This document shows, in pieces, positions 1,412-3,023 of a DNA stretch of 4,677 nucleotides. A program made the translations under genes and the position numbers. The notes under the pieces were generated by a model. It worked only from the letters and a program-made list of their open reading frames with translations, ran no database searches and had not been told where the DNA came from. Numbering within the stretch: the stretch's first letter is position 1; every line of letters starts with the position of its first letter. This DNA is from a virus (Monodnaviria > Loebvirae > Hofneiviricota > Faserviricetes > Tubulavirales > Inoviridae), in IMG/VR virus record IMGVR_UViG_648276659_000011. The stretch is one strand, 5' to 3'.

Positions 1412-2866
1412 TTAGGCACTCAGAATAATACGGAGCGCAACAAATCCCCATATAATCAGAAATATGGTTTCTACGGCGCTTCTGTTCTGCTCAATTAACG
1501 GACAATGGGAGTCAATTCTGTACTGGTGATTAAACACGCTGAATTCAATAACGGGGCAGGATGCTGAACGAGAGCCGATGTTAAATTCGTTTGTAAAAGG
1601 CAACAAGTTAATAATTGGCGTTAAAATATCTCTTGCCGTTGGCGTTTCTTCAAGCTCAGGCTCTTTTACACCGGGATCTTCTCCCAAATCTATATTGCCA
1701 TTATTTCCAGTGTCAGATCCTGAGTTGTTATTAATGGTAATATCAATATTGACGTCAGCCCCTGCACTGTCAGATACAGGTGAAAGCATATCTAATAACG
1801 TTGGAGATAGCCTAAGTTCCGACATCGCAGAAGTTACTTCAGCCGGTGAAACCTCTTTAAACGGTAAGCCGTTATAATCGGCATTAACGGCAGCTTCAGA
1901 CCACAGCTCGTTAATCATGTCGGCAAGAAGTGCTGGCGATACACTAACACTATCAAGATACTCCAGATAATCAATCATGGACTCAATATTTCCGGCCTCC
2001 AGTACTTCCGTCATGGCTTTATATTTGGTATTGGTCCAGATAGTAAGCTCACTCTTTTCATCAATATCTTTTGCGGTGTAATCCTCTTTTTCAGGAACGG
2101 CGCAAATCGTCGAATATCCACCATTTGACTGATTAGTCGTTTTACAAGGCGTGTTGTGATACTGATATTGCTTTCCTGCTGTTAAATAAGCAACGCTGTA
2201 ATACATGGGAAGCCCTGCTACATTTTCATACATGGGAATACCTGCGGGAAATGAAGATGCGGCCGGGTTGCTATACAAGTGTGTAATCTCAGGTATTTCA
2301 TAAAATGAGGAAGGATAAGTAAACTTATAATTCTGTTCAGTAAAGGATACATCTCCATTACTGTTGACAACTTTATTCGTCACAGTGCGTTCAAAATTCG
2401 TTAGTGTTTCAGTATAAGTACGCGAGTTATAGTCATTAAGATAATTTCTGGCAATTTCAGTTGGATTATCACCATAGTAATAAATTAGCTCTTTCGAATC
2501 CTGATAATAATAAAGCGCATTATCTGGCGTGGAATATCCTGTTTCAACACCTACAACTGGAGAACCCGCATCCACATTATTACGACTAACATGAAGGATT
2601 ACCGGACTTAATTCCTGTGGTTCAAAATTAACGGTTATCGTCTTACTTTCACCACTTTGACCACTGTACGTTACTTCATATAAATTATCGGAAATCTTTT
2701 TACCGTTAGTCATTACCATTACCGAGCCGTCAGATGAACTCAAAGAAGACGGAACAAAAGATGATACAGCAGCAGCAATACCCGCCCACGTTGTGACCTT
2801 GCAAAAACTTTGACGGATTGCCGTCAATATAGAGATGTGTTGCCCGACCTTCGCCATCAGATCCAA
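1412..2866 (-). CDS. pIII-like adsorption / minor coat protein; N-terminal boundary uncertain
   Basis: 484-aa ORF with a Gly/Asn/Ser-rich linker ('NNNSGSDTGNNGNIDLGEDPG') and a C-terminal region 'CPVIEFSVF...ETIFLIIWGFVALRIIL' matching the pIII membrane-anchor pattern. The ORF-track start at 2866 is a TTG; the first ATG is at 2857. The first ~26 codons overlap the gII remnant in another frame. Confidence 0.8.
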   Translation of the reverse strand: MDLMAKVGQHISILTAIRQSFCKVTTWAGIAAAVSSFVPSSLSSSDGSVMVMTNGKKISDNLYEVTYSGQSGESKTITVNFEPQELSPVILHVSRNNVDAGSPVVGVETGYSTPDNALYYYQDSKELIYYYGDNPTEIARNYLNDYNSRTYTETLTNFERTVTNKVVNSNGDVSFTEQNYKFTYPSSFYEIPEITHLYSNPAASSFPAGIPMYENVAGLPMYYSVAYLTAGKQYQYHNTPCKTTNQSNGGYSTICAVPEKEDYTAKDIDEKSELTIWTNTKYKAMTEVLEAGNIESMIDYLEYLDSVSVSPALLADMINELWSEAAVNADYNGLPFKEVSPAEVTSAMSELRLSPTLLDMLSPVSDSAGADVNIDITINNNSGSDTGNNGNIDLGEDPGVKEPELEETPTARDILTPIINLLPFTNEFNIGSRSASCPVIEFSVFNHQYRIDSHCPLIEQNRSAVETIFLIIWGFVALRIILSA

Positions 2867-3023
2867 CAGATCTTACTTTCATAGTGGATTCATACGAACC
2901 GCGAACGGTCAACCGTTTTACTGTTTCCCACTCCACTGCACCGTCAGCATCAACGCTGACGACACTACCAGCCGGTAATGGTCGGTGTATGCAAGGTAGG
3001 ATCCCGGTAAACCAGTCAATCAT
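2730..3023 (-). pseudogene. N-terminal remnant of a gII-family (rolling-circle) replication initiator; homology ends near 2787
   Basis: Translation begins 'MIDWFTGILP...' and contains 'NPSKFLQGHNV', paralleling Ff gII 'MIDMLVLRLPFID...ASPAKVLQGHNVFG' (recalled from memory). After GHNV the frame runs into 'GGYCCCCIIFC...' and stops, while pIII is read in a different frame over the same bases. RBS GAGG upstream of the ATG at 3023. Confidence 0.6.

Follow-up and report, generated by a model that had tools for sequence, protein, structure and literature searches.

Truncated gII and gIII genes at a 2,069-bp deletion junction in a dif-integrated filamentous prophage of Escherichia coli

The filamentous phages CUS-1 of Escherichia coli O18:K1:H7 and YpfPhi (also named CUS-2) of Yersinia pestis integrate at the chromosomal dif site, regenerate dif at one end of the prophage, and form tandem arrays of at least two copies (PMC4266046). 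Here we describe a prophage unit of this kind in which gII, the gene for the rolling-circle replication initiator, is cut short. The analysed DNA is a stretch of 4,677 bp, recorded as the Inoviridae virus IMGVR_UViG_648276659_000011 and referred to below as the window, and the feature under study is an open reading frame (ORF) of 97 codons within it. The window is found at 100% identity in the chromosome of MS 196-1, an E. coli strain isolated from human colon, where it represents the hipA-proximal unit of a two-unit tandem inovirus prophage lying between hipA and ydeT. The host prophage is a CUS-1/YpfPhi-like inovirus integrated at dif; a megablast search of the window against 50,697 phage records returned zero matches, and prophages are the sole representation of this phage family. 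We consider it highly probable that the 97-codon ORF is a pseudogene stump, created by an illegitimate deletion of 2,069 bp in a dif-integrated prophage of the CUS-1/YpfPhi type that is now inherited clonally and supports no phage cycle.

The attachment sites follow the pattern of CUS-1 and YpfPhi. A perfect 28-bp dif is found at the far end of the MS 196-1 array (positions 1156–1183 of this locus, L001), representing the regenerated site, and hybrid dif-like sites occupy the other junctions, namely L001 5880–5897 between the two units and L001 12660–12677 at the hipA junction, which is the right end of the window. The 15-mer GGTGCGCATAATGTA at L001 12660–12674 (window 4660–4674) is also present between the two copies. 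The tandem arrangement is shared as well, with units of 4,711 and 6,780 bp in MS 196-1 and two units of 8,849 bp in an intact relative.

The deletion junction and the truncated gII and gIII genes

The intact relative, strain Z1323CEC0001, carries its two full-length units at the same locus, allowing the window to be compared base by base. This comparison revealed four single-nucleotide polymorphisms (SNPs) and a gap of 2,069 bp, and nothing else. The gap lies between window positions 2793 and 2794 (junction J1), where the microhomology is a single nucleotide, G2793, common to both sides. In at least eight other complete genomes, the whole window is found at 99.9% identity in two pieces that extend over 6,746 bp, not 4,677 bp. 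A first-pass annotation made from the window sequence alone had proposed a deletion scar in a defective prophage, and these relatives, which carry the additional 2,069 bp at exactly this point, bear the proposal out; the comparison with intact relatives that it had suggested defines the lost DNA as running from gII codon 78 into gIII. No evidence contradicting the J1 deletion itself was found. Repeat slippage was considered as the mechanism and rejected, as the microhomology is 1 nt at J1 and 0 nt at J2 (a second deletion junction in the array, described below) and a nearby TTGCAA repeat lies off the junction.

The content of the missing segment is well defined in the intact relatives. It encodes gII residues 78–350, comprising the remainder of the Phage_CRI domain and the whole of G2P_X_C (in intact gII, model positions 1–231 of Phage_CRI are matched with E=1e-72, and G2P_X_C is matched with E=3.5e-34), followed by a 105-residue single-stranded DNA (ssDNA)-binding protein of the Putative_G5P family (E=1e-52), an 83-residue membrane protein, and a 77-residue pVIII-like coat protein. 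The last of these has a signal peptide, an acidic N-terminus, a hydrophobic core, and a basic tail, and it matches phrog_2186 'virion structural protein' (E=4e-29) and Phage_Coat_B (E=1.6e-3). The segment also holds a 40-residue hydrophobic ORF and the 5' end of gIII. The core set of CUS-1 and YpfPhi, gII-gV-coat-gIII-gVI-gI-gIV, is accordingly incomplete in the window's unit, with gII and gIII truncated and gV, the 83-residue ORF, and the coat gene absent. The first-pass annotation had listed the nuclease domain and the gV and gVIII equivalents as missing, and all of them are encoded in this segment.

What is left of gII is an ORF of 97 codons on the minus strand (2730..3023) that opens with ATG. 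Its residues 1–81 match positions 1–83 of the 232 positions of Pfam PF05144 (Phage_CRI, the N-terminal domain of gII) with E=1.4e-23, and the same residues also match phrog_702 'replication protein' with E=1.3e-23. Both matches lie far above chance, and the first agrees with the earlier statement that the ORF opens like gII of the Ff phages. Of the Phage_CRI domain, no more than the first third is retained, and the remnant is labelled a pseudogene, 'missing C-terminus', by the Prokaryotic Genome Annotation Pipeline (PGAP). Beyond the junction, the reading continues out of frame through gIII DNA for 20 codons; the same DNA read in the gIII frame gives TWAGIAAAVSSFVPSSLSS, which matches intact gIII. 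The complete PF05144 domain, positions 1–231 in the intact relative, is thus absent from the stump, as is G2P_X_C (the gene X-equivalent domain), which occupies residues 253–336 of the intact protein and falls within the deleted segment. In the intact protein, resemblance to Rep_trans is confined to residues 148–216 (a weak match, E=5e-3), past the breakpoint at residue 77. From these domain positions, the stump appears to lack the catalytic nicking-joining region and so would not qualify as a functional gII.

Alignment to intact gII also refines several details of the first-pass annotation. The break falls after codon 77, at 2793/2794, so that the truncation stands while the native codon count, given as about 79, is 77 by alignment and codon walk; the distance from the initiator start to pIII sequence, given as about 235 bp, measures 230–231 nt. 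The QGHNV motif that the ORF was said to reach is only partly genuine, because QGH belongs to gII while NV is made by the junction, and the intact protein reads QGHSV. Upstream of the stump, a sigma-70-like promoter and a GAGG Shine-Dalgarno sequence 8 nt ahead of the ATG are retained. The stump and the downstream gVI, gI, and gIV may be transcribed from this promoter-like site under the intact repressor.

The same deletion truncated gIII, the intact ORF of which matches phrog_3942 with E=4.5e-253. Its start codon and at least 60 codons fall in the deleted segment, and every candidate start is lost, be it the annotated GTG, an ATG farther upstream in the open frame, or the internal Met57. The remnant, labelled by PGAP as a pseudogene 'missing N-terminus', differs from the intact relative in a single residue, V to I, resulting from the SNP at window 1549. 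The earlier statement that the adsorption and assembly genes are intact therefore holds for pVI and pI/Zot but not for gIII. Similarly, the pIII-frame ORF described as abutting the initiator (1412..2866) is real, but its first 24–25 codons are gII read in an alternative frame, not gIII. This fusion of alternative-frame gII with the gIII remnant makes a chimeric ORF of 484 codons without the native gIII N-terminus; intact gII contains the same 35-residue alternative-frame ORF. Inspection of the sequence upstream of the chimeric ORF revealed no convincing ribosome-binding site, and the ORF gave no Pfam match.

A separate observation concerns the start of gIII in the intact relative. The annotated GTG is doubtful (L002 10974–11124, L002 being the Z1323CEC0001 locus), as the frame is open for a further 150 nt, up to an ATG. 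The alignment to phrog_3942 begins 23 codons upstream of the annotated start, in a region with a signal-peptide-like hydrophobic stretch.

Distribution of the scar and history of the tandem array

To place J1 among other strains, a 120-bp probe spanning the junction was compared with 5,426 complete E. coli genomes and was fully covered in only one, MS 196-1, at two places. In contrast, 98 complete genomes hold the deleted segment almost in full, and the exact intact 350-residue gII is found on 793 contigs across Enterobacterales. Because 98 genomes hold the segment and one has the junction, the short layout is not the normal organisation of this phage. The exact 97-residue chimeric protein is present on 70 contigs (120 index blocks), the sources of which include the 2010 Human Microbiome Project draft of MS 196-1 (EFI90485.1), a Broad KTE isolate, a third-party annotation (TPA) assembly, and human-gut metagenome and Logan assemblies.

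These counts bear on two other explanations of the scar, each of which the first-pass annotation had named as a way in which it could be wrong. The first is that the junction is an assembly or sequencing artefact and that the true genome has intact gII-gV-gVIII-gIII, broken up by a frameshift or by mis-assembly of tandem repeats, which assemblers often mishandle; the junction does occur in a single complete RefSeq genome. The difference, however, is not an indel: 2,069 bp are absent at a position that is not repeated. The same junction also recurs in assemblies made independently of one another: the 70 contigs with the junction-spanning protein stem from separate projects and different technologies, among them the earlier (2010) draft of MS 196-1, a second isolate, metagenomes, and Logan, and some carrier contigs contain both deleted copies (L010). 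We give an artefact practically no credence. The second is that a Rep-like protein of about 80–100 residues is normal upstream of gIII and has a function of its own, for example in origin binding or regulation. With the gII promoter, Shine-Dalgarno sequence, and start codon retained, a 97-residue product could be made, and the repeated sampling of the allele shows that it has lasted for some time. Yet the final 20 residues of this product are out-of-frame gIII, the fragment breaks off within a single Pfam domain, of whose 232 model positions it reaches the 83rd, and the layout is limited to one lineage, to be set against the 98 genomes with the segment and the 793 contigs with the intact protein. 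A naturally short initiator is hence extremely unlikely.

The surroundings of the scar are constant. The gene neighbourhood of the chimeric ORF is identical at all nine places examined, and at two of the nine both deleted units lie on one contig or scaffold (one of them L010). In seven carriers, the 3-kb flank with the end of an autotransporter gene, hipB, and hipA is identical to that of MS 196-1 or has one difference. This constant neighbourhood, together with the near-identical hipBA flanks, indicates one clonal lineage with vertical inheritance. To judge from the sequences compared, the scar looks clonally inherited, having probably arisen once in an E. coli lineage that has been repeatedly sampled from the human gut.

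Within MS 196-1, the window is exactly the segment that is repeated in the array. Two substitutions, at window 1445 (T to C) and 2203 (A to G), are all that separates the neighbouring unit (L001 1221–5897) from the window copy (L001 8001–12677); at each, the window has the allele of the intact relative, and the neighbouring unit contains the same J1. The second copy that the first-pass annotation had proposed as a possible source of complementation thus exists, 6.8 kb away, but carries the same deletion. We also searched for a helper by sensitive blastn with a chimeric probe that includes 300 bp of the deleted gII region and ranks MS 196-1 first. On the MS 196-1 chromosome, this probe detected the two deleted copies only, with no third copy and no other gII-like DNA, and the first 50 kb of each of two plasmids contained no annotated phage or II/X-family genes. 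The prophages of the mouse E. coli isolates 8178, DEF2, DEF10, and FEA3 match the same probe in four pieces, over 3,041 bp compared with the 4,069 bp expected for an intact unit, which suggests another length variant, with either a different gIII N-terminal region or another deletion. The scar shared by the two MS 196-1 copies is best explained if the deletion came first and the deleted unit was later duplicated or integrated anew. Alternatively, recombination may have homogenised the two copies, and the data fit both accounts.

Close inspection of the dif-proximal unit revealed a second deletion, J2 (L001 1220/1221), which corresponds to the loss of L001 5932..8000, exactly 2,069 bp as at J1. 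Here nt 83 of the pIV gene is followed directly by the terminal 34 bp of the phage, and the rest of pIV and two small ORFs are gone. The unit lengths of 8,849, 6,780, and 4,711 bp accordingly differ by steps of 2,069 bp. The J2 junction is absent from other complete genomes, while its 66-residue junction ORF is present on 35 contigs. The two junctions are superficially alike (GTCA/CAACG and GTCAA/TCAACG, the slash marking the join), and J2 has 0 nt of microhomology and a 4-nt duplication. Similarity between the breakpoint contexts or between the deleted segments was not above background: local alignment scores were 6–10 where the null was 9.5 +/- 1.9, and when the segment lost between gII and gIII was compared by blastn with the one lost on the pIV side, the matches were no more than chance ones. 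No fold axis or hairpin was found at the mirror point (window 1397 or 3752.5; z-scores +0.4 and -1.4), and the strong hairpins at 3645–3690 lie 60–110 nt off the symmetry axis. Mis-nicking by the initiator at origin-like sites was rejected, as the left halves of the junctions are unlike those of their partners and the 4-nt duplication at J2 does not fit precise termination. IS1-mediated deletion at J2 was rejected as well, as dif and the 34 bp of phage end separate IS1 from J2. The homology, fold-axis, mis-nicking, and IS1 tests thus gave no mechanism for the equal lengths, and equality by chance has a low prior probability, on the order of one in thousands.

Two sets of observations at the ends of the array are given here for completeness. 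Near the right end of the window, two dif-like sequences lie in inverted orientation about 40 nt apart around a GC-rich palindrome (window 4581–4608, plus strand, and 4647–4677, minus strand), reading GGTTCGCACAA-TGACG-TTATGTGTAAA and GGTGCGCATAA-TGTACGACTCG-TTATGTTGAAA. The pair resembles the folded ssDNA attP described for CTXphi and YpfPhi. On the ydeT side, outside the window, a copy of IS1A (L001 412–1124) ends 31 bp from the perfect dif of MS 196-1. It is missing at that place in the strain with the intact prophage, and adjacency to IS1 recurs in the contigs of other carriers.

The array raises the question of whether the deleted units were, or still are, mobile. In a helper-dependent mini-phage or satellite, comparable to the Ff miniphages or RS1/CTXphi, the 6,780-bp and 4,711-bp genomes would have been replicated and integrated as units with gII, gV, and coat proteins supplied by a co-resident intact phage, and they could still be mobilisable. 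The identical scar in both tandem copies speaks for this, as do the retained attP-like inverted pair and the structure of the dif-proximal copy, which is the one expected had a 4,711-bp circle with both deletions entered a lone deleted prophage at its perfect dif. In YpfPhi, the arrays are reported to change, as extrachromosomal genomes integrate again (PMC4266046). On the other hand, the same neighbourhood at nine of nine places and 3-kb flanks that differ at no more than one site in seven carriers indicate clonal descent, not horizontal spread, and no unrelated host or other locus appeared among the places examined. J1 and J2 occur in no other complete genome, the MS 196-1 chromosome gave no sign of a helper, and duplication by unequal recombination requires no phage functions. 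We regard a helper-dependent mini-phage or satellite as very unlikely. A historical version is that the array records a mini-genome that shrank stepwise from 8,849 to 6,780 to 4,711 bp, i.e., a defective-interfering or satellite inovirus that became fixed in a gut E. coli lineage. The structure of the dif-proximal unit is precisely the one that a 4,711-bp circle with both deletions would leave after integrating at dif. If this were true, defective genomes would formerly have replicated and re-integrated with a helper, and the deletions would be linked in length or register, for instance if a deleted copy had recombined with an intact one while shifted against it by the length of the first deletion. 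We consider such a history very improbable.

Several points nonetheless weigh against a clonally inherited, inactive remnant of one deletion. The equal length of J2 suggests a history less simple than one random deletion, and two accounts compete for how both copies gained the same scar. The plasmid part of the helper search covers the first 50 kb of each of two plasmids. The inactivity of the element is deduced from its gene content, and mobilisation by a superinfecting helper might occur.

Present function and other features of the window

Taken together, the origin of the stump in a single deletion remains the explanation that we favour. In this scheme, one illegitimate event with 1 nt of microhomology would have joined gII codon 77 to gIII codon 61/62 out of frame. 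With the 2,069 bp went the remaining part of the N-terminal domain of gII, its gX-equivalent domain, the ssDNA-binding protein, the 83-residue protein, the coat protein, the small hydrophobic ORF, and the start and N-terminus of gIII, and none of the genes required for rolling-circle replication or filament construction is left complete in the element. The array would then be locked in the chromosome and, as its gene content implies, would produce neither replicative form nor virions. The earlier proposal that the element cannot replicate or make virions unaided is in line with the loss of the nicking part of gII, the ssDNA-binding protein, and the major coat protein. Particle production by YpfPhi ceased when the gene for replication, for morphogenesis, or for secretion was disrupted (PMC4266046). 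The genes left in the window copy, i.e., the repressor, two accessory ORFs, pVI, pI/Zot, and the pIV secretin, would perhaps be transcribed while serving no phage cycle.

A further possibility is that the remnant is domesticated and under selection, with the cost of phage production gone and the repressor or accessory ORFs providing immunity or another benefit. This is a claim on present function and is compatible with an origin by deletion. The protein accessions of the regulator, pVI, pI/Zot, and the 132-residue accessory ORF are identical to those of intact phages, a resident YpfPhi partially protects against superinfection (PMC4266046), and the lineage has been sampled repeatedly; by analogy, the remnant may confer repressor-based immunity. 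Against this, decay goes on, as seen in the loss of pIV and two ORFs from the dif-proximal copy and in the IS1 beside dif, and the tiny divergence within the lineage leaves little time for purifying selection to show. We regard domestication as unlikely.

The features of the window are summarised in Table 1.

Table 1. Positions, strands, and supporting evidence for features of the 4,677-bp window
Feature	Position	Strand	Evidence or remark
pIV secretin gene, first 83 nt	1..83	-	gene extends left of window
pI/Zot-like assembly ATPase, intact	83..1108	-	Pfam PF05707 E=2.2e-26; WP_001335801.1, as in intact relatives
pVI-like minor coat/assembly protein (DUF2523), intact	1112..1399	-	Pfam PF10734 E=1.4e-19; WP_000467042.1, as in intact relatives
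gIII (puvA-like adsorption protein) remnant, codons 62-520 of annotated 520 residues	1412..2792	-	comparison with intact ORF
Out-of-frame tail, 20 codons (NVGGYCCCCIIFCSVFFEFI) and stop	2730..2792	-	gIII DNA, wrong frame (codon walk)
Deletion junction J1, 2,069 bp missing	2793..2794		alignment to Z1323CEC0001 prophage; missing stretch L002 10794..12862
Alternative-frame gII stretch fused in frame to gIII remnant	2793..2866	-	TTG 2866 / ATG 2857; ORF list
gII' remnant, native N-terminal 77 codons, rolling-circle initiator	2793..3023	-	= residues 1-77 of 350-residue WP_001386054.1
Sigma-70-like promoter TTGAGA-17-TACATT with extended TG, upstream of gII'	3096..3124	-	consensus scan, 9/12 matches
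Helix-turn-helix (HTH) regulator, intact, divergent from gII	3191..3643	+	HTH_3 E=7e-4, HTH_26 E=2e-3, both weak; WP_000069317.1, as in intact relatives
Two accessory ORFs, 132 residues and 120-residue membrane protein, variable module by attachment site	3728..4491	+	ORF list; annotated hypothetical
Hybrid dif-like attachment site, hipA-side prophage/chromosome junction	4647..4677	-	XerC arm GGTGCGCATAA perfect

The pIV gene, cut by the left end of the window, is complete in the window's copy of the prophage (L001 6839..8083) and encodes a GspD-type secretin (WP_001388363.1). The HTH regulator sits in the position of RstR and YPO2273, a positional analogy (PMC4266046). Neither accessory ORF gave a significant Pfam match. 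Three of the four SNPs that separate the window from the intact relative (4308, 4444, and 4472) lie within the 120-residue membrane ORF (window 4129–4491, plus strand), and the adjacent ORF is called with 131 instead of 132 residues in several carriers, so the lineage varies slightly. Window 3645–3690, located between the regulator and the accessory ORFs, contains two strong hairpins side by side on the minus (viral) strand, with stems of 13 and 6 bp, a DNA folding energy of -16.7 kcal/mol and z=-5.2 against shuffled sequences; they are candidates for a bidirectional terminator, a minus-strand origin, or a packaging signal. Just inside the attachment site, an unannotated ORF of 22 codons (window 4503–4571, plus strand) encodes the very hydrophobic peptide MSMETGVAIIILLVIVGKLIGL, a candidate small membrane or toxin-like product that may also be due to chance.

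Overall, this is an ordinary decayed prophage, and both truncated genes are already pseudogenes in RefSeq. The case matters little in itself. Its use is as an example, resolved to the base, of a filamentous prophage at dif that has been inactivated but retains its repressor, accessory ORFs, and secretion and assembly genes, and the J1 scar can serve to trace one E. coli clone of the human gut. It also carries a warning for annotation: matches of about 100 residues to the 'II/X family replication protein' beside pIII-like ORFs are stumps, and the apparent end motifs of such stumps, here QGHNV, can be chimeras made by the junction. The pair of equal 2,069-bp deletions is the only point that might repay further work.

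Comparison with known filamentous phages

Among isolated phages, the nearest initiator in a protein search is gII of phage I2-2 (Lineavirus I22), with 57.8% identity over 98% of gII of the intact relative. The gII gene of I2-2 likewise encodes an internal gene X product. The ORF in the window differs in that it keeps 77 of the 350 residues and has lost the gX-equivalent C-terminal domain.

Miniphages of the Ff group (M13/f1/fd) arise by internal deletions through illegitimate recombination and need the missing functions in trans. The element in the window shares with them an internal illegitimate deletion of a filamentous phage genome. Ff miniphages, however, are episomal, have kept and often duplicated the origin, have lost nearly all genes, and are propagated by a helper, whereas the element described here is chromosomal and clonally inherited, with no signs of helper-driven spread or propagation among the carriers examined.

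Defective elements of the CTXphi family in Vibrio cholerae, such as truncated or pre-CTX prophages and the RS1 satellite, use dif and XerCD, occur in tandem arrays, lack parts of the genome, and depend on helpers. The CTXphi family is a parallel for inovirus prophages integrated at dif by XerCD in tandem arrays (PMC4266046). Its sequence relationship to the element in the window is at the family level only. RS1 keeps rstA, rstB, and rstR and is without morphogenesis genes, while the present element is the reverse, having lost replication and coat genes and kept pVI, pI, and pIV.

The closest likeness is to CUS-1 and YpfPhi, in which the repressor is divergent from gII and is followed on the gII side by gV, the coat gene, gIII (puvA), gVI, gI/Zot, and gIV. 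Integration at dif and the tandem array are common to these phages and the prophage of the window, and the exact intact gII is annotated as MULTISPECIES across Enterobacterales, including Yersinia. The deleted segment is 99.3% identical to the prophage of UTI89 (O18:K1:H7), which served as comparator in place of the published CUS-1 and YpfPhi sequences; from the serotype, we infer that the UTI89 prophage is CUS-1. The repressor-side accessory module of the window differs from that of the K1-type prophages, which cover only 69% of the window at about 98.5% identity. The window copy further differs from CUS-1 and YpfPhi by the absence of 2,069 bp, from gII codon 78 to gIII codon 61, and is defective in replication and assembly. 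The element is a defective derivative of the CUS-1/YpfPhi family, not a functional member of it.

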